Positions 7,068 to 22,401 of a stretch of DNA of 64,000 nucleotides are shown piece by piece; within the stretch, counting starts at the first letter, position 1, and each line of letters opens with the position of its first letter. A program made the translations under genes and the position numbers. The DNA comes from an uncultured beta proteobacterium (lineage in GTDB: Bacteria; Pseudomonadota; Gammaproteobacteria; Burkholderiales; Burkholderiaceae). The stretch is taken from contig CAIPQU010000012.1 of NCBI GenBank assembly GCA_903867305.1, positions 5,377 to 69,376 on the forward strand, given 5' to 3'. The notes under the pieces are model-generated. The model was given only the letters and a program-made list of their open reading frames with translations, was not told the DNA's origin and ran no database searches.

Positions 7068-8462
7068 TTAAAAAAAAGAATTGATCCACGCGTTGGTTTT
7101 AATGGGTGAGGAAGGATTACTGACAATTTGTTCTCGCAAAGAAACTACCGCATCTTGCAGATGAGGCGCATATTGCATGGCTAAGGTTTGTATTTTTTCT
7201 AACACAGTATGGGCTTCTAGTGGCCTCGCAGAGCTACCCAAAGCGGCCTCACAAGACTCAGAAAATTGTTGGCCATTATTTAACTGGATAGTCACTTTTG
7301 CAGGCCGATCATATGGCCAAGGACGAACATCCTTCATTTCTTGCATCACCACCTTATTTCTAATTTTAGCAATATGGGTGTTAGACATACTTTGATGTAA
7401 GAAATTTTCTGTGGCATGAGCTCCGTTAATGATGGTGGCAGCCGCTGCATGAGGAATCGAAAACTTTGCTGCAAGGGTTGTCGAAGGATTGGCATTATTA
7501 AAGTTCATCCCCATTTTGGATACTTCAATCACGATCGAAGAAATGGGTTCACCACCACGAAGGTTAGGATGTTGATCTAATATTTTTTCAATCGCCTCCA
7601 TCGAAGCATGGGCATGGTGGCAAGAGCCATAAAGCTTATGATAGCCAGCGGTAATAGTCCAATCAGAACCTAAATCCATACTAAGATGTTCAGGTTTTGA
7701 TGTTGCACCAAAACCCATTTGGTACACGTCATATGCCCCTGATGGCGTACCAAAAATATTGGCTTGTGCCATCTCACAGGCAAAATGACCTAACCAAGCC
7801 CCCGCAGCAGGCCAGGCATTTCTGATTAAGGCCCCTTGGATAGGGTGACTATAAGGACCCGGGGAAACCATAGTGCAAGCACCAGTGAGCGCATTCATAA
7901 AAAGGGTTTGATCAAAGCGCATCAAACTTGCATATCCTGCGGCAGAACATACGGCATTAAACACACCGTGCGGATGAAGTCTCGGCAATGTTTCTGGCCA
8001 AGACCTAGCAAACCTCGTGCCTATCTCATAGGCAACTACCACTGCTCTTAACATTTCTTGAATAGATAGATCATTGGCTTGCGCTGCAGCCAAGATTAGG
8101 GGTTGACTTAATGCGCCTGGATGAACTGCGGTTCTTGTATAACCATCATCTAGCTCGTTCCAAGTAATCGCCAAACCGTTTGCTAGTGCAGCGTCCATCA
8201 TCGATGTCTTTGGTCCATTCTTACGAAAAACAGTTGCTGAAGAAGATGATGATTTATGCAGTAGCTGATCGTGATACGTTTGTACCTCTGGCTCGTCAGA
8301 TGCAGATAGTGTAGCCGCAATGTTGTCACCTAAAATCAGAACGGCATTTTGCAAAACATGAGTAGGTATGTCTTCAAAACGAAGACGAGTAGCCCACTCG
8401 GATAGTTTTAATAAATGATCTGCAACACTATTTTTTAACTCGGTTTGGTTCACTGTATTCAT
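7068..8462 (-). CDS. MmgE/PrpD family protein (#1)
   Basis: ELDDG..HPG, HKLYGSCHHAH and AKFSIP motifs. Start set at ATG 8462, which overlaps the CoxL-like stop (ATGA). Confidence 0.88.
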   Translation of the reverse strand: MNTVNQTELKNSVADHLLKLSEWATRLRFEDIPTHVLQNAVLILGDNIAATLSASDEPEVQTYHDQLLHKSSSSSATVFRKNGPKTSMMDAALANGLAITWNELDDGYTRTAVHPGALSQPLILAAAQANDLSIQEMLRAVVVAYEIGTRFARSWPETLPRLHPHGVFNAVCSAAGYASLMRFDQTLFMNALTGACTMVSPGPYSHPIQGALIRNAWPAAGAWLGHFACEMAQANIFGTPSGAYDVYQMGFGATSKPEHLSMDLGSDWTITAGYHKLYGSCHHAHASMEAIEKILDQHPNLRGGEPISSIVIEVSKMGMNFNNANPSTTLAAKFSIPHAAAATIINGAHATENFLHQSMSNTHIAKIRNKVVMQEMKDVRPWPYDRPAKVTIQLNNGQQFSESCEAALGSSARPLEAHTVLEKIQTLAMQYAPHLQDAVVSLREQIVSNPSSPIKTNAWINSFF

Positions 8463-10849
8463 GATGGAGATTTTTGTAAAGCATGCCATATTTTATTGGA
8501 TGTGAAAGGCATTTCTATACCTCGTACCCCAACAGATCCTAAGGCATCCATCATCGCACTGGTGATTGCTGCAGGAGCACCTATAGTTCCTGACTCACCG
8601 CATCCTTTAACCCCCAAAGGATTATGTGTACAAGGTTGAGTTTCATCGGCCTCTGAAAGAAAGTCGGGCAATATATCAGCCCGTGGCATTGCATAATCCA
8701 TAAAAGAACCCGTCATTATCTGACCTGAGTCTGGCTCATAAACAGCACTCTCAAATAAAGCCTGCCCAATACCTTGGGCAATAGCACCGTGCACTTGTCC
8801 TTCAACAATCATCGGATTAATCACTGTACCGACATCATCTATGGCAATGTAAGAAAGCAACTTGGTGACACCAGTTTGAGGATTGATTTCAATCTCACAT
8901 GCTTGCGCACCATTGGACCAAGTCAGATTTGGTGGGTCAAAGAATGCATTTTCGTGAAGCACTGGCTCCATTCCAGGAGGTAAATTATGTGCATAGGTAG
9001 CTGCACGTGCAACTTGGTACCAGTCCAATTTTTCGTTTGATTTGTGAGATATAAAATAACCTAATCCATCATTGACTTGATGCTCAACATCGACCACATC
9101 ACAGCCAAGCAAGTGCGCAGCTAATAACTTCGCTTTATCAATAATTTTTTTACAAGCCATTGTCATCGCTCCACCTGCAATAACCATTGACCTCGATCCA
9201 AAGGTTCCTGTTCCATAAGGAACTCGACCGGTATCACCTTCTACTAATTCAATCATCGATAAAGGCAATCCAATTTTTGAAGCAATCACCTGTGGGAATG
9301 TCGTCGCATGTGCTTGACCATGACTATGCGTACCACACATTAACAAAATGCTTCCATCTGCAGATACACGAATATCTGCAGAATCAAAAAAGCCAGCTCT
9401 AGCACCAAACATCCCTGCATACTTTGAAGGTGCTACACCAGAACTTTCTAGAAAATAACAAATGCCAAACCCACGTATCATGCCATTTTCTTTTGAAATA
9501 GCACGGCGTTTTTCAAATCCAGCAAAGTCAGATGCAACTAGAGCCCGATCGAAAAGACGTTGAAAGTCACCACTGTCATAAATAGGACCTAATGGAGTTG
9601 CATAGGGCATCTCACTCGATTTAATGAAATTTTTACTGCGCAGTTCCATACGATCTATACCAGTTTGTATGGCGGCTTCTTCTATTAATCTCTCTAAAAC
9701 GAAACATGCTTCAGGTCGTCCCGCGCCACGATAGGCGTCTGTTGGAACCGTATTGGTAAACATCGCATCGACTTCTGCAAATACCGCAGGAATTTTATAA
9801 GGTCCTGACAAAACTGCGGTATAGACGGTTGTTGGTACTGCAGCCCCAACCGTAGAAATATAAGCCCCAACAGCGGCATAAGTTTTTACACGAACGCCAA
9901 GGATGTGACCTTTTTCATCTAAGGCCATTTCAGCAGAAGTCATATGATCTCGAGCTTGGTAGTCGCTAATAAATGCTTCACTTCGTGTCGAAGTCCACTT
10001 TAAGGTTAACTTCAATTTTTTACAGGCCCAGGCCAGAATAGTTTCTTCGGGATATAACTTTCCTTTAGTGCCAAAACCACCACCCACATCTGGCGCAATC
10101 ACCCGTATTGAATTTTCCGGAAGATTTAATTGCTCTGAAGTTAATTTACGGATGTGATGTGGTACTTGTGTTGCAGACCAAATCGTGAGCTCATGTCCAT
10201 CGTCTCCTAAAGATGGTGAAACTTGGGCAAGAACAGCTCTTGGTTCAATAGCAGCACAAACAATACGATGATTTTTAATTTCGACACGCACATGATGTTT
10301 AGCTTTAGCAAAAGCCGCATCCACAGGCTCTTTCGCTCCGCGGTGAAATTTCACACAAAGATTATTCGGCGCTTGTGAATGCAATTGTGGGGCAGATTCT
10401 TTTGCCGCGTCTCGAACATTCACAACAGCATCAAGGACTTCATAATCTACTATGATGAGTTCCGTAGCGTCCAATGCCTGATGGGCTGTTTTTGCAACCA
10501 CCATCGCAACAATTTCACCAACGTGGCGAACGCGATCAATCGTGATGGAATACCGAGGGGGCTCATTCATTTGAGAACCCTCTGCGCCAGGAATGATCCA
10601 CAGTGGCGTCATTTTACCAACGCCATCATTGAACATATCCTGTCCAGTCAGTACCGCATATACACCAAGCGCTTTTTGTGCGTCTGAGACATTGATGCTC
10701 TTAATAAGTGCATGTGCATGTGGCGACCGTAAGAAAGCACAGTAATATGTATTTTCAGGAAGAAGATCTGCAACAAATTGCCCCTTACCCTTTAATAATC
10801 GATTATCTTCCCGACGTAAGACCGTTTGACCAATTCCTTGAGGATGCAT
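8459..10849 (-). CDS. Molybdenum hydroxylase large subunit (xanthine dehydrogenase family, CoxL form II-like)
   Basis: 796 aa with DVGGGFGTK, AYRGAGRPE (form II signature, not AYXCSFR), HGQAHAT, GSRS and GVKGCGE. Confidence 0.92.
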   Translation of the reverse strand: MHPQGIGQTVLRREDNRLLKGKGQFVADLLPENTYYCAFLRSPHAHALIKSINVSDAQKALGVYAVLTGQDMFNDGVGKMTPLWIIPGAEGSQMNEPPRYSITIDRVRHVGEIVAMVVAKTAHQALDATELIIVDYEVLDAVVNVRDAAKESAPQLHSQAPNNLCVKFHRGAKEPVDAAFAKAKHHVRVEIKNHRIVCAAIEPRAVLAQVSPSLGDDGHELTIWSATQVPHHIRKLTSEQLNLPENSIRVIAPDVGGGFGTKGKLYPEETILAWACKKLKLTLKWTSTRSEAFISDYQARDHMTSAEMALDEKGHILGVRVKTYAAVGAYISTVGAAVPTTVYTAVLSGPYKIPAVFAEVDAMFTNTVPTDAYRGAGRPEACFVLERLIEEAAIQTGIDRMELRSKNFIKSSEMPYATPLGPIYDSGDFQRLFDRALVASDFAGFEKRRAISKENGMIRGFGICYFLESSGVAPSKYAGMFGARAGFFDSADIRVSADGSILLMCGTHSHGQAHATTFPQVIASKIGLPLSMIELVEGDTGRVPYGTGTFGSRSMVIAGGAMTMACKKIIDKAKLLAAHLLGCDVVDVEHQVNDGLGYFISHKSNEKLDWYQVARAATYAHNLPPGMEPVLHENAFFDPPNLTWSNGAQACEIEINPQTGVTKLLSYIAIDDVGTVINPMIVEGQVHGAIAQGIGQALFESAVYEPDSGQIMTGSFMDYAMPRADILPDFLSEADETQPCTHNPLGVKGCGESGTIGAPAAITSAMMDALGSVGVRGIEMPFTSNKIWHALQKSPS

Positions 10850-10979: not shown

Positions 10980-11948
10980 ATGAATCTCATGAAAAATTGT
11001 TTGATCTCGTTAATGATTTTGTTATTTGGTACATTCTCAGCGTTGAGCATTGCCCAGCAAAAAATGAAAATGGGATTGTTTATCGCATCTTCTGCACTTC
11101 CCTACTTTATCGCTAAAGAAAGGGGTTATTTTGCAGCAGAGGGTTTAGATGTTGAAGGAGTTCCCCTAGCAACTCAACCACTAGTCGTTCAGGGTATAGT
11201 CACAGGTGATTTAGATGCGGGATCGAATTTATTATCTCTTGAGGGTGCAAATATTAATGCTATTCGACCCGATACGTTGAAATATATTTCATTAAATTGC
11301 CAAAACGTCAAATATCAACTTGAGGCTTATGTGGTTCCTGTAAACAGCCCTATTAAGACTATAGCTGAATTGAAGGGTAAAAGAATCATGTCTGCGCCTG
11401 GACCTGGAAATCTTTTCGTAGCTAAAGGGGTTCTTAAAGCTGTTGGCTTAGATGAAAAAGATTATCAAATGCAAGAACAACAAATGAGCGTTCACATTGG
11501 TGCGTTGCAGTCTGGCCAATATGATGCGGTTTACACCCTTGAACCGATCGTCAGCATGATGGTTTCTCAAGGTATTGGCCGTAAGCTTGAGAGCGGTGTG
11601 ATTGCAAAATATATGCTCGGAAAACCTGATGCTTGCGCAGTCCTTGGTGGCGGAGTTCTCAGTTCTAAATTTATTAAAGAGTATCCACAAGCTGCGGAAA
11701 GATTTGCAAGAGCGTGGGCAAAAGCGTTGAACGATGGCAACAATGATCCTAAAGCACGTGATTTACTTGTCAAATACATGAACACGTCAGCAAGTATTGC
11801 TCAGACGGTTCCTTTATCACACTACAATATGATTAAAGACTTAAAACCTCAGGATCTTGCAGATTTTCAGAATTTAATTGATCAAGCAACTGCATATGGA
11901 CTCGTCAAAGAGAAAATAGATGCTAAATCCTTCATCAAAGTATATTAA
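10980..11948 (+). CDS. NitT/TauT (NMT1/SsuA-like) ABC transporter substrate-binding protein
   Basis: Signal peptide, ALPYFIAKERGYFAAEGLDVE and IKTIAELKGKRI motifs; first gene of an ABC trio. Confidence 0.88.
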   Translation: MNLMKNCLISLMILLFGTFSALSIAQQKMKMGLFIASSALPYFIAKERGYFAAEGLDVEGVPLATQPLVVQGIVTGDLDAGSNLLSLEGANINAIRPDTLKYISLNCQNVKYQLEAYVVPVNSPIKTIAELKGKRIMSAPGPGNLFVAKGVLKAVGLDEKDYQMQEQQMSVHIGALQSGQYDAVYTLEPIVSMMVSQGIGRKLESGVIAKYMLGKPDACAVLGGGVLSSKFIKEYPQAAERFARAWAKALNDGNNDPKARDLLVKYMNTSASIAQTVPLSHYNMIKDLKPQDLADFQNLIDQATAYGLVKEKIDAKSFIKVY

Positions 11949-11953
11949 ATTTT

Positions 11954-12718
11954 ATGACATTGAAAAAATCACTAGAGCCTCTAGAACCATTAACTGGGGC
12001 TTTAGTTTTTATCTTTATTTGGTGGCTTTGCACTTCGCTAAAGTTGGTTGATCCCATCTTATTACCATCCCCGCAAGCATCAGCTAAAGCCATGTGGACT
12101 GGCCTTACTACTGGCACTTTAATGCACGACATGATCATCACGATTCGGCGCACCATTTATGCTTTTTTAATTGCTGTTGTGATTTGTGTGCCTCTTGGAC
12201 TTGTTTTAGGTAGTTCAGCTCGAATTTATCGATCTTGTGAATTTGTGATTGATTTTTTTCGCTCAACACCAGCTTCCGCCCTATTCCCCCTATTTTTAGT
12301 TATTTTAGGCGTAGGTGAAAATACTAAAGTCGCTGTTGCTGCTTTCGGTGCGGGATTATTAATTCTTTTTAATACTGCCTATGGTGTGATGAATGCGAGA
12401 AAAGTCCGACAAGCTGCTGCTAGAGTCATGGGAGCGTCAAGTTTGAAAATACTTGGTGGAGTAACACTACTTGAATCACTCCCACAAACTTTCGTTGGTA
12501 TGCGCTCTGGAATATCCTTTTCTTTAGTGATTGTCATCGTTGCTGAGATGTTCATTGGCTCCACAGATGGTCTTGGCCAAAGGGTCATCAATGCACAAAT
12601 GATTTTTAATATGCCGGAAATGTATGCGACGATTTTTAGCGCTGGAGCATTAGGCTATGGATTAAATCTGCTCTTTATTCTTGCAGAAAGACACTTCGTT
12701 CATTGGGGTGGTAAATAA
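11954..12718 (+). CDS. NitT/TauT ABC transporter permease
   Basis: Hydrophobic; LLPSP, EAA-loop-like QAAARVMGAS and AEMF..GLG. Confidence 0.92.
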   Translation: MTLKKSLEPLEPLTGALVFIFIWWLCTSLKLVDPILLPSPQASAKAMWTGLTTGTLMHDMIITIRRTIYAFLIAVVICVPLGLVLGSSARIYRSCEFVIDFFRSTPASALFPLFLVILGVGENTKVAVAAFGAGLLILFNTAYGVMNARKVRQAAARVMGASSLKILGGVTLLESLPQTFVGMRSGISFSLVIVIVAEMFIGSTDGLGQRVINAQMIFNMPEMYATIFSAGALGYGLNLLFILAERHFVHWGGK

Positions 12719-12748
12719 TCGTGCGTTTCTTAAAACAATAAAGACATC

Positions 12749-13510
12749 ATGCCTGCCCATATCCAAATCCGTGGTTTAAATAAATCTTTTGCTGGACAAA
12801 CGCTGTATTCCAATTTCGACCTAGACCTTCCTCACGGCAAAATTACTTCTATCTTTGGTCCAAATGGTTGTGGAAAATCCACACTGATTAACATGGTTTC
12901 AGGTTTGACTCCCATGGATAGCGGTCAAGTTCTTTTTGATGGAAAAACACTAGCTCAAACTGTGATTGGCTATGTCTTTCAAAATTACCGCGACGCTCTT
13001 TTCCCTTGGAAAAAAGCCATCGATAATATTAAATATCCACTTCAAATAGCGAAGAAGCCTTCTGGTGAGATTGAAGCAAGAACACAAGAACTGATTCAAT
13101 CTTTTGATGTTCGATTTGATTTAAATCGTTATCCCTACGAATTATCTGGTGGTCAGCAACAGTTGATTTCGATTATGAGAGCCCTAGCACCTCATCCAGA
13201 AGTACTCTTTTTAGATGAGCCTTTTTCTGCGCTGGATTATGAAATGACACTATTTATGCGAGATAAACTTCAGGCGATTTTTGAAGCAACAAAAACCACC
13301 ATGATTCTTGTCTCTCATGATCTCGATGAGGCTGTTTATTTATCTGATCACATTCTCATGCTGACACGGCGTCCTACGAGAATTGCACGCGAAATAGAAT
13401 TTACAGCACCAAGACCTCGTCAACCCATTACGCTGACTTCTGAATTGTTCAATCAAGTTAAAGGGCAATGCCTAGAAATCTTCCAAAAAGAGATTAAAGT
13501 AATAGATTAG
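12749..13510 (+). CDS. ABC transporter ATP-binding protein
   Basis: Walker A GPNGCGKS, signature LSGGQQQ, Walker B LFLDEPF and H-loop VSHD. Confidence 0.96.
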   Translation: MPAHIQIRGLNKSFAGQTLYSNFDLDLPHGKITSIFGPNGCGKSTLINMVSGLTPMDSGQVLFDGKTLAQTVIGYVFQNYRDALFPWKKAIDNIKYPLQIAKKPSGEIEARTQELIQSFDVRFDLNRYPYELSGGQQQLISIMRALAPHPEVLFLDEPFSALDYEMTLFMRDKLQAIFEATKTTMILVSHDLDEAVYLSDHILMLTRRPTRIAREIEFTAPRPRQPITLTSELFNQVKGQCLEIFQKEIKVID

Positions 13511-13543: not shown

Positions 13544-14020
13544 ATGAGCATCCAAGTCTCGATGACCATCAATGGCCAAGCCATTTCACATGAGGTCGAA
13601 GAGCGCACGCTATTAGTGAACTTCATTCGTGATCATTGCCGCCTGACAGGGACTCATGTGGGTTGTGATACTGCTCAATGTGGTGCCTGCACGATTCATC
13701 TTAACGGTCGCGCCATTAAAAGTTGTAGCATTTTGGCGATGCAGGCACAGGGTGCTGCAATTACGACTATTGAAGGTGTATCAATCGATGACCAATTGCA
13801 TCCAATGCAAGAAGCATTTAAAACCCATCACGGTTTGCAATGTGGTTATTGCACACCCGGAATGATTATGAGCGCGATTGATCTGGTAAACAATTTCCCT
13901 AACCCAAGTAAAGAACTGATTCGTGAACAACTCGATGGGAATTTGTGTAGATGTACTGGTTATCACAATATTGTTGTAGCGATTCAAGAAGCCGCAAAAG
14001 TAATGAGTCCTTCTAACTAA
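13544..14020 (+). CDS. Molybdenum hydroxylase small [2Fe-2S] subunit (CoxS-like)
   Basis: [19 protein letters not shown] and CRCTGY motifs. Confidence 0.95.
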
Positions 14021-14039: not shown

Positions 14040-14834
14040 ATGTATCCTTTTTCGTTTCATCATACAAAATCGATTCCTGAGTCGGTATCGTTAAAAAAAG
14101 AACTTTCAGAGGCCAAATATATTGCTGGTGGTCAAAGTTTAGTTGGGGTTCTGAAACTCAGGCTTGATAAACCTTCGGAACTAATCAACCTAGGATCAAT
14201 ACGTGAACTTTCAGGTATTTGTATCGAAGGTAAAACTCTGACGATTGGAGCAATGACTAGACATGCTGAAGTTGCTGCTTCATCTGATGTGAAATCTTGT
14301 ATTCCTGGAGTAGCTCAATTAGCAGGTCTGATAGCAGATCGAATGGTTCGTAATATGGGTACGATTGGTGGATCTGTTGCAAATAATGATCCTTCGGCTG
14401 ATTATCCCGCTGCTGTATTAGGATTAAATGCCACCATTATTACCAATCAACGCGAAATACAAGCGGATGATTTCTTTATTGGTATGTTTGAAACAGCTCT
14501 TGAACCAAGTGAATTAATTCAATCAATTCGCTTTACTGCGCCAATTAAATCAGCCTACGCAAAATTCAAACACCCTGCATCAAGGTATGCCGTAGTCGGA
14601 GTTTTTGTTGCCCAATTTCCAAATGAAGTTCGAGTTGCTGTTACCGGTGCAGGAGCTTCCGTTTTCCGTCATACAGAAATGGAAAAAGCTCTTTCTAAAG
14701 ATTTTTCTACAAGTGCTATTGAACCCATTCAGATTTCTGCTCAAGGTCTTAACTCTGACTTTTTTGCGGATTCACAATACAGAGCCCATTTAATGAAATC
14801 AATGGCAATACAAGCCGTGAATAACGCAAAATAA
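14040..14834 (+). CDS. Molybdenum hydroxylase FAD subunit (CoxM-like)
   Basis: [21 protein letters not shown] and KHPASRYA motifs. Confidence 0.94.
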
Positions 14835-14851
14835 CATTACTAGGAATTAAT

Positions 14852-15946
14852 ATGGCAATTGACGTCGTTAAAGTTGAAATTAAAAGTGTCTCAGATGCAT
14901 CGGGTCTGATACATCATATTGAATCTGGCAGGTTCAAGGCTGATGAAGTTATTGCTGTTATTGGAAAAACCGAAGGTAATGGCGGCGTGAATGATTTCAC
15001 AAGAATCTTATCCGATCAAGCTTTTCGGGAGGTTCTGTTAAAACATGGTACTAGAACAGCGGCCCAGATTCGTGAAATCCCCATGGTTTGGTCAGGTGGT
15101 TGTGATGGTGTCATCACTCCCCATGCAACCATCTTTGCTCAAGTTCAAGATTCAACTACTTCTCAAGAAAGTAGATTAGTCATTGGGACTGCCCTCAGCC
15201 CACGCATTTATCCAGAAGATATTGGACGACTTTCAATGGTAGAAAAAGTCAAGCAAGGTGTTTTACTTGCGATGAAACAGGCAGGGATTGATGACCCTAA
15301 AGATGTTCATTATGTACAAACGAAAACACCACTATTGACTATCGAAACTGTCCTCGACGCTAAATCTCGCGGTAAAACATTAGCTTGTGAAGTACATGAC
15401 TCGATGGGAGTCTCTAATGGTACTACTGCACTAGGGATTGCCGTTGCTCTTGGCGAAATTGCTATGCCTACTGAAGATGATATATGTGAGAATCTGGATT
15501 TATATTCTTCCGTATCTTCTTGCTCTTCAGGAGTTGAATTAGATTTTGCACAAATTGTTCTTCTTGGAAATAAATCGGGTGCTGGCGGAAACTTTAAGAT
15601 AGGTCATAGTGTGATGCGAGATGCGATTGACATCGACGGTATCTATGATGCTATTCGCTCAGCCGGTTTAGATCTTCCTGAACGTCCTAGATCAACAGAC
15701 TTAAAAGGAAAACTCGTCAATTGCTTCATCAAGTGTGAAGCGGACCATACTGGCAAACTTCGTGGTCGCCGTCAAATCATGTTAGATGACTCTGATGTAC
15801 ATCATCACCGACATTCTAAAGCAGCTGTTGGAGGCGTTGCTGCTGCTGCGATTGGTGATCCCGCTGTATTTGTCTCTGTGGATGCGATGCATCAAGGTCC
15901 ACGCGGTGGTGGCCCTGTGATTGCTATTGTCGATTTAGGAAATTAA
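14852..15946 (+). CDS. Ring-opening cyclic amide hydrolase (AtzD/barbiturase family), barbiturase-type
   Basis: [63 protein letters not shown] and [11 protein letters not shown] motifs. Confidence 0.9.
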
Positions 15947-15971: not shown

Positions 15972-16451
15972 TTATGAATAGGAATTAGGGTCAAAAAAAC
16001 TTGTTCCTGCAATATAACGTTTTCCATCAGACATATCTGGAAGCGGCCCTTTTTCAATTTTTCCTTCAAAGGTTAATTCGAGTTGCACGCCGCTGGGATC
16101 ATAGACAAATAATTGCCATATGGTCGTGTTAGGAACTAAGAACTCTCGATATGGCAATCCCATCTCGATAAATTTTTCTCTAAATTCATGATACCCAGAA
16201 CATGAAAAAGATATATGATCAATTGCAGCAGTACCTAATGGAGTCTTACCATCCGCCCCCAAAGCAGGACCTCCAGCATAACAATGAAGTATCGCTTGCC
16301 CCCCAGGGATCGGAGCTGCAAGCCAAGCACCAGGAAAGCCAAAATCAGGGCGATAAATATCTATCAAACCTAAAACCTTGGTATAAAACTCTTTCGTTGC
16401 CTCTAAATTATTTGTTTTTACAGCGATATGAAATAAACCATTCGTTATCAT
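15972..16451 (-). CDS. VOC (glyoxalase/bleomycin-resistance-like) protein
   Basis: FHIAVKT, LHCY, IDHISF and DPSGVQLEL paired beta-alpha-beta-beta-beta metal-ligand pattern. Confidence 0.85.
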   Translation of the reverse strand: MITNGLFHIAVKTNNLEATKEFYTKVLGLIDIYRPDFGFPGAWLAAPIPGGQAILHCYAGGPALGADGKTPLGTAAIDHISFSCSGYHEFREKFIEMGLPYREFLVPNTTIWQLFVYDPSGVQLELTFEGKIEKGPLPDMSDGKRYIAGTSFFDPNSYS

Positions 16452-16464
16452 GAACTACCCCTAT

Positions 16465-16848
16465 TTAAACTTTATCGATCAAACTAACATGGGCTGAAAC
16501 AATTCGCCAACCATCCGCAGTTCTTACCCAGGTTTGCGATTGACGTCCAATTTTTCCAGGAACAGTTTCTCTTTCAAATAAGGTATTAGCAGTTGCTAGA
16601 TCATTTCCAAAAGTTGTAATAACAGTTTTACTGAGACTTCTTAATAATCCTTTTGATGGTCTAGCCGCTCTAAAAGCAGCAATTTCGCCAAAGCCATAAA
16701 GATTTTCATTCATTCCATAACGGATCACTAGGGGGTTATTCCAAAAGGAATCATCTAAGATATTAATCTTATTGTGAATCAAAGCGTCCTCATATTGATC
16801 AAATAACGCTTGAACTTCAGCTACTACATTAGGGATGTTAATTTGCAT
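16465..16848 (-). CDS. AtzH-like / HpxZ (DUF3225, NTF2-like) protein
   Basis: 127 aa with FDQYEDAL, IRYGMNENLYGFGEIAAFR and GRQSQTWVR..GWRIVSAHVS. Confidence 0.9.
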   Translation of the reverse strand: MQINIPNVVAEVQALFDQYEDALIHNKINILDDSFWNNPLVIRYGMNENLYGFGEIAAFRAARPSKGLLRSLSKTVITTFGNDLATANTLFERETVPGKIGRQSQTWVRTADGWRIVSAHVSLIDKV

Positions 16849-20079: not shown

Positions 20080-22401
20080 TCATCTTTTTAATGGCCCAAA
20101 GTGAGGCGGAGAAACCCTTCTTTTTGAGGATGCTTCATACGCTGAGGCTACCCGTATTAATCGGTCTTCCATTCCGGGCTCTACACGGAATACCAAGGAG
20201 AATGGCAAGCCGGCTCCTTCAATCTTCGTGGGCTCTTGACTCGCTTTAGCAACGTATTTTTGTCGATCCTCTGATAACTCAAACCTAGCATCGTAAGCCG
20301 TGTCAACAAATCCAGCTGGAACCAATATCTCGGTGAGACCTGCATTCGGGCCATACAACAACTCGTTCCGAAGATCATTGATTTCTCCTGGCTCATCGGG
20401 CCATCCAATTTTTGCTGGAGGAAGTGGCGTATGCAGACGAACTAAAACATCCAACTTATTCTCCAGTATGACCATCATATCCACTCGTCGTAATAACTCT
20501 CTGAGCATAATCCGTTCATCAATCCCCTGCCGACCACCTAAAGGATTTCTAGGATCCGTAGTCTCTTCCCAGTTTTTAAATGCGGAGCGTTGATCATCTC
20601 CCCAAAACTTTGATCGCTGATTTAATGTAGGCCAATCAATCATCGATTCATTAAAACCAAGGGCTTTCCAATCTTGAGCTCGACGACTCAAATATTGCTT
20701 GATATGAAATCGAAATGAATTCGCTAAAATTTGATGCTGAATAGTCGCAATGGTTAAATTCTTTGGAGGTTCAATATTTAAATCAGCGAGCTCCACAAAA
20801 TAATCAATGGATGTCATTTTTCCTGTACCAAATACTTTTCCTGGAGCAAATTCTGTTGGCTGTATTTGTGCAGCAAATTCAGGAAATAATGGCTGACCAG
20901 TATCATTTAAGCGAAATAATATATCTGGCATAAATACAGGAAGCAGTCTTGCTAATGCCTTTGTAAAATCAATATCCATCTGCTCCATCGAGCTATCTTT
21001 TTTCCAAAGATAATGCGAAGACTCGACTAAAGTTGCACCTAAGTGCTCTCCAAGAACTGTTTTAATCTCCTGAGTTGCCTTCGTAATGATGGGCTCAACT
21101 GATTGAATACCGGGATTGACCATTGATTCACGAATCACACCGATGCGCGTACCTTTGAGAAACCCTGCCGTATTACTTTGAATGATATGGTCTTGGTATC
21201 GTGTCTGTAATACGGATGAACGTGGAACGGTGGTATACGGATCTCGAGGATCGTAATAACCCTTTTCTTCGTCCTTGAGTGCATCTAGGATACGAGCACA
21301 GTCATCTAGACTCCGTCCTAGAATACCCGTACGATCACAATAAATATCTGCACCAATTGCTCCTCCATCAAATCCTAACATTGCCTTATGAGGCAATATC
21401 AATGCTAAAGAATTATGGTTAGCGGGCCCACGTGTCGACATCCGTGTCTCTTCACCAAGACTTGCCATTACCAAATTAGCACTGACGGATACACCCGATC
21501 CTGAACTTGAGCCTAGTGAAGCAGAACGAGTTGTATCATAAGGATTCGATGGATTACCACCCCAGGTAGAGCGTTGATAACCTAGAACAGAAGGCAATAT
21601 TTGCTGAGGATAATTTTTGCCGCCTGGATCACCTGCACGGCCATTGTATTCAGTCATAACAGCCTTCGCTAAAATAATCGCACCTTTTTTACGAAGTTGA
21701 TCAACCAAAATATGGTCTCTCGCTGGAAAATCAATATCATAAGCAGCATCTGCGCCACCCGTTGATCTCATATCCTTCGTATCAAAAGCATCTTTAAAGG
21801 AAAAAGTAACGCCATAAAGGGGCATTAAATCTAGATCAGGTTGATTACCATATTGCTGATCTAATGCTGCTGCCTGTTCGAGAGCATCGGGATAATGCCG
21901 AAACATTTCACACATGGGAGGTGCTCCAATAGGCAAAGGACCTTTTGAGGGATGTAAGTCGTAATCACCTCGGCAGGTAACCGATCGCTCACCACGCAGG
22001 TTAATGGTTGATAAAGCATTTAATTGTCCAGCATTGGGTTTACCCACGATCATGCCAAACTGCTGTTTCACAGAGGGATCAGAGGCTGTCGCTTCCATTC
22101 GGCCAAACTCAAGTTCAGGTCCCATATAAGCATCTAAATTAGGAAATAAATCACTTGCTTTAAGCGTTTGCTGATCAAACTGAATCGCTTGCCCTCCCCG
22201 AACAACTCCATGCTCAGCTGGAAGATTACTCCCATCTCTGGTTACTAATAAGCTCGAAGGACCATTAAAGTGACGAATTCGCTCTAAATATTGTTGAACA
22301 ATCTCAACACATGTCGTTCGGCCCTCTTGAATAGCAAGATGCAATTGAGCAATAGTAGATTCTTCTACCTGAAAATGTTGATTTGACTGACTTTGTGACA
22401 A
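20080..22401 (-). CDS. Large amidase-signature family protein with atypical motif
   Basis: FSFKDAFD (Lys), NPYDTTRSASLGSSSGSG and EETRMSTRGPA in place of TDTGGSIRxPA; 773 aa. Confidence 0.8.
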   Translation of the reverse strand: MSQSQSNQHFQVEESTIAQLHLAIQEGRTTCVEIVQQYLERIRHFNGPSSLLVTRDGSNLPAEHGVVRGGQAIQFDQQTLKASDLFPNLDAYMGPELEFGRMEATASDPSVKQQFGMIVGKPNAGQLNALSTINLRGERSVTCRGDYDLHPSKGPLPIGAPPMCEMFRHYPDALEQAAALDQQYGNQPDLDLMPLYGVTFSFKDAFDTKDMRSTGGADAAYDIDFPARDHILVDQLRKKGAIILAKAVMTEYNGRAGDPGGKNYPQQILPSVLGYQRSTWGGNPSNPYDTTRSASLGSSSGSGVSVSANLVMASLGEETRMSTRGPANHNSLALILPHKAMLGFDGGAIGADIYCDRTGILGRSLDDCARILDALKDEEKGYYDPRDPYTTVPRSSVLQTRYQDHIIQSNTAGFLKGTRIGVIRESMVNPGIQSVEPIITKATQEIKTVLGEHLGATLVESSHYLWKKDSSMEQMDIDFTKALARLLPVFMPDILFRLNDTGQPLFPEFAAQIQPTEFAPGKVFGTGKMTSIDYFVELADLNIEPPKNLTIATIQHQILANSFRFHIKQYLSRRAQDWKALGFNESMIDWPTLNQRSKFWGDDQRSAFKNWEETTDPRNPLGGRQGIDERIMLRELLRRVDMMVILENKLDVLVRLHTPLPPAKIGWPDEPGEINDLRNELLYGPNAGLTEILVPAGFVDTAYDARFELSEDRQKYVAKASQEPTKIEGAGLPFSLVFRVEPGMEDRLIRVASAYEASSKRRVSPPHFGPLKR

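Follow-up and report, generated by a model that had tools for sequence, protein, structure and literature searches.

Introduction

Cyanuric acid hydrolases (CAHs) and barbiturases open their substrates by Ser-Lys hydrolysis of one ring amide (PMC3758960, PMC4051656), and each of the two enzymes is inhibited by the substrate of the other (PMC3758960, PMC4051656). Only one Ser/Lys dyad, corresponding to S225/K158 in the protein considered here, is invariant across the family (PMC4051656). Five discriminating positions, namely AtzD 195, 321, 325, 345 and 346, were proposed by Peat et al. in 2013 (PMC3758960). In CAHs these positions are occupied by R, T, R, G and G, and in the barbiturases of Group VI, at that time containing Actinobacteria only, by N, H, K, V and S/A (PMC3758960). 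CAHs have also been defined by the Wackett group through two arginines (AtzD R194 and R324) together with the motif SGGxExQGPxGGGP (PMC9118981).

Barbiturase is a constituent of the oxidative pyrimidine pathway, and no gene for the pyrimidine-oxidising molybdenum hydroxylase (uracil dehydrogenase) step is named in the literature searched. Here we consider a hydrolase encoded in a stretch of 64,000 nucleotides of DNA from an uncultured beta proteobacterium, the whole of which is called the window below. In our opinion, this protein is probably a cytoplasmic Ser-Lys amidohydrolase of the barbiturase lineage, which would open a barbiturate-type ring in a route of pyrimidine oxidation.

Family, Phylogeny and Fold of the Hydrolase

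The hydrolase scored 459 bits with PF09663 (cut-off 25) and 467.7 bits with TIGR02714 (cut-off 153), and these scores place it in the AtzD/TrzD/barbiturase family. Its best match in the PDB was the Rhodococcus barbiturase 5HWE (494.9 bits, 65% identity), and the best CAH match reached 300.9 bits and 45% identity. Among the full-length matches from a library of 50%-identity clusters, one alone exceeded 45%, a representative of the barbiturase type (P0121, 63%); all the remaining ones were at or below 44%.

A tree was calculated with IQ-TREE (LG+C20, UFBoot/SH-aLRT). The query belongs to a proteobacterial subclade (support 100/99), and 5HWE to an actinobacterial one (100/99). Both subclades join at 97/94, with the CAH references outside. 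The query is thus found within the joint clade that holds the assayed Rhodococcus enzyme, but on the side of the sister subclade. No assayed member of the proteobacterial subclade was found in the literature searched, and this group is a large, experimentally untouched sister of the characterised actinobacterial barbiturases.

An AF2 model built from a 112-sequence alignment had a pLDDT of 93 and a pTM of 0.92; an earlier one from 27 close homologues (pLDDT 62, third repeat below 50) was discarded. The accepted model has the three-repeat Toblerone fold predicted for the hydrolase and can be superimposed on 5HWE with a TM of 0.97 and an rmsd of 1.5 Å, against a TM of 0.91 and 2.1–2.2 Å for CAHs. 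All 33 top PDB matches of the model were family members (TM 0.82–0.97).

The initial annotation of this DNA, made from the letters alone, had proposed a barbiturase-clade enzyme. Sequence score, phylogeny, the modelled fold and four of the five published specificity positions (PMC3758960) support that proposal, and in the tree the query groups with barbiturases and not with AtzD-type enzymes.

The PDB also contains 5HY0, a Group V member of the family, with an entry title reading 'orotic acid hydrolase' and chains named only 'Ring-opening amidohydrolase'. To judge by this title, the family may include a third activity.

Catalytic and Specificity Residues

The three Ser/Lys dyads of the 364-aa hydrolase are K39/S81, K158/S225 and K294/S342, where the second serine is part of an S225/S226 pair. 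They align with those of 5HWE, 6BUM and 5T13 in alignments to solved structures made with HMMER and MAFFT. Other confirmed residues are N189 in SNG, K323 in HRHSK, V343 after S342 and C84 in SGGC, and the segment SVDAMHQ occupies residues 342–348. The predicted metal-binding loop of repeat C extends from H347 to P355 (HQGPRGGGP), and E296, the equivalent of AtzD Glu298, is conserved.

At four of the five positions of Peat et al., the query matches Group VI (N189, H319, K323 and V343); the fifth is D344, not Ser or Ala. The predicted pocket is asymmetric and of the barbiturase type, with Asn189 and Lys323 replacing two of the three CAH arginines, His319 replacing Thr and Val343 replacing Gly. 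In both alignment procedures N189 and K323 stand opposite Arg of the Moorella and TrzD CAHs, V343-D344 opposite Gly-Gly and M346 opposite Glu. Both CAH-defining arginines are consequently absent, N189 and K323 being found instead, and over the 14 residues of the motif S-G-G-x-E-x-Q-G-P-x-G-G-G-P the query reads otherwise. The AtzD residues corresponding to M346 and N189 are Glu and Arg, respectively, and these two form a pair (PMC3758960). The loss of this Glu is to be expected, because the Arg-to-Asn change at N189 removes its partner.

Direct checking of the sequence confirmed the reading frame, coordinates and residue positions given in the initial annotation, and its alignment states (N189 and K323 opposite CAH Arg, V343 opposite Gly) were reproduced. 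The blocks of the Rhodococcus barbiturase that it had cited (40 residues, made up of 33 residues and SVSAAHQ) are all present in PDB 5HWE and had thus been given accurately. It had further regarded C84, D344 and M346 as private substitutions and had thought that the substrate range might be shifted in this particular protein; here the wider comparison led to another conclusion.

The homologue was translated from 196 genome loci, comprising 80 of the proteobacterial, 80 of the actinobacterial and 36 of the CAH type. Positions 84, 189, 319, 323, 343, 344 and 346 read C, N, H, K, V, D and M in all 80 proteobacterial loci, T, N, H, K, V, S and A in all 80 actinobacterial loci, and T, R, (T/Q/S), R, G, G and E in 36 out of 36 loci of the CAH type. 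This three-way split is absolute, and N/H/K/V was found in 160/160 loci of the barbiturase clade. C84, D344 and M346 are also present in 119–120 of the 120 nearest representatives of 90%-identity clusters. Being fixed throughout the proteobacterial loci, these residues are therefore markers of a large sister subclade and not private substitutions. If the substrate range is shifted at all, the shift would have to belong to the proteobacterial subclade as a whole.

Differences that do belong to narrower groups are few. Lineage-specific ones are A128S, Y248F and L259I, and those of the window protein alone are G102T, A134K, E209D, A222S and R247N; all lie away from catalytic and specificity sites. 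Between the two barbiturase subclades (80 + 80 loci), 28 positions are fixed differently, including the pocket-flanking positions 84, 186, 187, 318, 321, 344 and 346; at 176 other positions, identity over the two subclades is 95% or more.

In the work of Cho et al. (2014, PMC4051656), the barbiturase subgroup was described as having Gln at the Arg188 position. Our alignments have Asn there in 160/160 loci, as in Peat et al. (2013).

Operon and Source Genome

The features surrounding the gene are collected in Table 1.

Table 1. Hydrolase gene and neighbouring features, with positions counted along the window.
Feature	Position	Strand	Basis and remarks
MmgE/PrpD-family gene	7068–8489	−	Overlaps the end of the CoxL gene
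Molybdopterin-binding CoxL-type large subunit	8459–10849	−	Divergent from the ABC operon; synteny in L001–L003
ABC importer: NMT1/THI5-type binding protein (10980–11948), permease (11954–12718), ATPase (12749–13510)	10980–13510	+	
[2Fe-2S] CoxS-type subunit of molybdenum hydroxylase	13544–14020	+	PF01799, PF00111
FAD-binding CoxM-type subunit of molybdenum hydroxylase	14040–14834	+	PF00941; 17-nt gap to the hydrolase gene
AGGA Shine-Dalgarno/ribosome-binding site	14842–14845	+	6 nt before the ATG; read directly off the sequence
Barbiturase-type Toblerone-fold ring-opening amidohydrolase (predicted)	14852–15946	+	ORF of 364 codons (ATG at 14852, stop ending at 15946), profile searches, alignments, tree, AF2 model
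VOC/glyoxalase-fold protein	15972–16451	−	Convergent on the hydrolase gene; conserved solely in the closest relatives
AtzH/HpxZ-like NTF2-fold protein	16465–16848	−	NF033625 (185 bits), PF11533; PMC6219798
773-aa amidase-signature protein	20080–22401	−	4 kb downstream

The hydrolase gene is the last one of a tight forward-strand operon, in which it follows the ABC genes, CoxS and CoxM with gaps of 5–33 nt. The importer is orthologous to the one adjoining the hydrolase in most proteobacterial loci. The divergent CoxL is presumed to be the partner of the CoxS/CoxM subunits; its gene is parted from theirs by 2.7 kb, with the ABC genes between. No riboswitch was found by Rfam in the 130-nt divergent promoter region.

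Of the proteins encoded downstream, the AtzH/HpxZ-like one may process the ring-opened ureide; for cleavage of the ureide, a weak candidate is the 773-aa amidase. The latter is no orthologue of the 474-aa amidase that is linked to the hydrolase elsewhere. It has a paralogue, 82% identical, in the same genome (contig C135:1092-3407).

The source assembly (3.14 Mb, 41% GC) contains a single member of the Toblerone family and a urease (971 bits). Neither urea carboxylase nor the alpha subunit of malonate decarboxylase was found in this genome, nor were orthologues of the HyuA/HyuB proteins and of the 474-aa amidase that accompany the hydrolase in other loci. The gene is carried by 2 of 37 genomes of the genus and is therefore an accessory trait. 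Such rarity, and the missing of the usual downstream partners, might be taken as signs of a decaying or non-functional accessory gene, but this explanation is hardly credible. The gene has an intact reading frame with every catalytic residue conserved, the ribosome-binding site is good and the operon is tight. Three freshwater betaproteobacterial MAGs (L001–L003) have the complete arrangement as well, their syntenic copies being 90–91% identical at the protein level, and there are very few lineage-specific changes at conserved sites. On the strength of the frame, the catalytic residues and the syntenic copies, the pseudogene reading was rejected.

Gene Context in Other Genomes

Neighbours up to 10 kb away on either side of the hydrolase gene were counted with tblastn in those loci that were 15 kb or longer, namely 52 proteobacterial, 66 actinobacterial and 33 of the CAH type. 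HyuA/HyuB proteins of the hydantoinase/oxoprolinase family adjoin the gene in 31/52 proteobacterial and 39–47 of the 66 actinobacterial loci, and in none of the 33 CAH-type loci. CoxL-type genes were found in 16/52, 14/66 and 1/33 loci, respectively. The 474-aa amidase occurs in 35 of 52 proteobacterial and 14 of 66 actinobacterial loci, and the NMT1-type ABC importer in 35–43 of the former, with none seen among the latter. Partners common to both barbiturase subclades are excluded from CAH loci, which speaks for pathways of the same kind in the two subclades.

Among the proteobacterial loci, the gene order found most frequently is LysR-HyuA-HyuB-Bar-SBP-ATPase-permease-amidase, and CoxL/S/M often come next. 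HyuA/HyuB genes lie directly upstream of barbiturase-type genes, for example, in L005, L010, L020, L052 and L065 (proteobacterial) and in L081–L160 (actinobacterial). In the literature searched, neither a role for an enzyme of the HyuA/HyuB type in the oxidative pyrimidine pathway nor a link between HyuAB and barbiturase was found.

In 8 of the 52 proteobacterial loci, uracil phosphoribosyltransferase (Upp) and a 420-aa family are encoded near the HyuAB-Bar-ABC-amidase operon. The 420-aa family may tentatively be assigned, by sequence, to DUF1688 (URC4-like), and if this assignment is true, the HyuAB-Bar cluster is tied to pyrimidine metabolism. Loci with Upp and the 420-aa family include L033, L042, L046, L061, L068, L073 and L075. 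Unlike CAH loci, those of the barbiturase clade carry Cox genes, HyuAB and Upp, which is a genomic tie to pyrimidine oxidation or catabolism.

At least three gene contexts exist inside the proteobacterial subclade: HyuAB-ABC-amidase, CodA-like deaminase and the Cox/AtzH type of the window. In the tree of this subclade, the window lineage forms a long branch (0.24) nested among the Hyu-ABC-amidase types, and the Cox/AtzH arrangement is therefore derived. Among barbiturase-type loci, the pair of AtzH/HpxZ-like and VOC genes was found in this lineage only; AtzH-like genes stand beside 6 of 33 CAH-type genes (57% identity).

The window CoxL is about 34% identical to other hydrolase-linked CoxLs and no closer to them than to five paralogues in its own genome. 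Orthology with the other hydrolase-linked CoxLs was rejected on these grounds, and the window CoxL is an independent recruitment. Since it is not orthologous, the substrate of the hydroxylase may differ.

Some alphaproteobacterial genomes have two or three barbiturase-type genes (L004/L006/L027, L013/L014 and L028/L030, one MAG each). The contexts of these copies differ, being HyuAB-ABC-amidase in one case and CodA-like deaminase with another ABC system in the other, and the signature residues are identical in all copies.

The same fold and chemistry might also serve another physiological ring, either in the whole subclade or at least in this lineage: a 5-substituted barbiturate, an isobarbiturate- or dialurate-type ring, or the product of a pyrimidine other than uracil. 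D344 at a published specificity position is consistent with this idea, as are the clustering of subclade-remodelled residues around N189, H319 and K323, the non-orthologous CoxL of the window, the variety of contexts and the presence of several copies in some genomes. We consider it rather unlikely all the same, because four of the five specificity residues and the 176 positions mentioned above are shared by both subclades, HyuAB partners are common to the actinobacterial clade with the assayed enzyme, and the seven signature positions are invariant between context types.

Annotation of Barbiturases as Cyanuric Acid Hydrolases

The NCBIfam equivalog NF052395, 'cyanuric acid amidohydrolase', gives the query 442 bits at a cut-off of 360. 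The crystallised and assayed Rhodococcus barbiturase obtains 478 bits with the same model, and the Moorella CAH 578 bits. NF052395 cannot separate barbiturase from CAH, because a true barbiturase also passes its cut-off. Judged by these three scores, a cut-off between 478 and 578 bits would separate them. No barbiturase-specific profile model responded in the search. The JGI names of close relatives are mixed and include 'cyanuric acid amidohydrolase', 'barbiturase' and 'ring-opening amidohydrolase'. It had been foreseen in the initial annotation that automated pipelines would probably call the protein a cyanuric acid amidohydrolase, and this is what the profile score and the names of relatives indicate; the non-discriminating cut-off of NF052395 is the cause.

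The score with NF052395, together with the AtzH-like gene 0.5 kb off, could suggest a cyanuric acid hydrolase feeding an AtzH-containing s-triazine pathway. Such a function is extremely improbable. The profile passes a genuine barbiturase too, no AtzE/AtzG or allophanate hydrolase is encoded nearby, and the 773-aa amidase obtains 64 bits against a cut-off of 511. Furthermore, barbiturase was reported to be inhibited by cyanurate without acting on it (PMC3758960, PMC4051656). The missing of both CAH-defining arginines, the deviating SGGxExQGPxGGGP motif and the position in the tree outside CAHs led us to reject this reading.

This is a systematic error of annotation. Because of it, s-triazine degradation may be read into hundreds of genomes from soil and freshwater, for which pyrimidine catabolism is more probable.

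Proposed Function

For a hydrolase opening a barbiturate-type ring, the following route may be proposed. The NMT1-type ABC transporter would import a pyrimidine, in the simplest case uracil, thymine or both. The co-transcribed molybdenum hydroxylase, with CoxS/CoxM in the operon and CoxL divergent, would hydroxylate it at C6 to barbiturate or 5-methylbarbiturate, and the hydrolase would cleave one ring amide of barbiturate to give ureidomalonate. The ureide would be broken down further, possibly by the AtzH/HpxZ-like protein, the VOC protein or an amidase, with the ring nitrogen leaving as urea for the urease of the genome. The presence of the ABC importer and molybdenum hydroxylase subunits in the operon fits such a sequence of pyrimidine import, formation of barbiturate and ring opening. 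The operon supplies candidate genes for the pyrimidine-oxidising molybdenum hydroxylase step.

A bolder view may be formulated, according to which the proteobacterial C84/D344/M346 subclade is functionally distinct from plain barbiturase and has been rewired in the present freshwater betaproteobacterial lineage, by a non-orthologous molybdenum hydroxylase and by AtzH/HpxZ-like and VOC proteins replacing HyuAB and the amidase, as an undescribed variant of oxidative N-heterocycle catabolism. We regard this as unlikely. Such a variant would start from another entry substrate, or its ring-opened ureide would have a non-hydrolytic (decarboxylating) fate, or both. The proteobacterial clade, in which one of the proposed specificity positions has undergone a fixed change, is a clean target for structure-function studies.

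Comparison with Known Systems

The closest characterised relative is the barbiturase of Rhodococcus erythropolis JCM 3132 (Bar, EC 3.5.2.1; PDB 5HWE/5HXU/5HXZ/5HY1; Group VI of Peat et al. 2013), to which the query is 65% identical over the full length, with a TM of 0.97. Both proteins have the three Ser/Lys dyads, R51, N189/H319/K323/V343, the S-S pair 225-226, conserved blocks (18 residues and LDDSDVH), the HQGPxGGGP metal loop and E296. In contrast to the Rhodococcus enzyme, the query has C84 for Thr, D344 for Ser at the fifth specificity position, M346 for Ala, H318 for Trp and H321 for Gln. It belongs to the sister subclade, with proteobacterial and not actinobacterial hosts, and its function is predicted.

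The CAHs AtzD, TrzD and that of Moorella (EC 3.5.2.15; PDB 4BVQ, 5T13, 6BUM) have the same Toblerone fold, Ser-Lys chemistry and metal loop as the query, at 43–45% identity. They match the same Pfam and TIGRFAM families, and the NCBIfam equivalog for CAH passes the query as well. Unlike them, the query has two of the three substrate arginines replaced (N189 and K323), Val-Asp in place of Gly-Gly after the third serine and Met in place of the Glu partner of the second arginine, and it stands on the opposite side of the 97/94 branch.

The oxidative pyrimidine pathway consists of uracil/thymine dehydrogenase (EC 1.17.99.4), barbiturase and ureidomalonase (EC 3.5.1.95). The window resembles it in the co-transcription of a molybdenum hydroxylase with a barbiturase-type hydrolase, and a urease for the end product urea is present in the genome. 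It differs from this pathway in having the importer fused into the operon and a divergently encoded large subunit that is no orthologue of the CoxLs linked to the hydrolase elsewhere. AtzH/HpxZ-like and VOC proteins stand in the place of the hydrolase-linked amidase, of which there is no recognisable orthologue.
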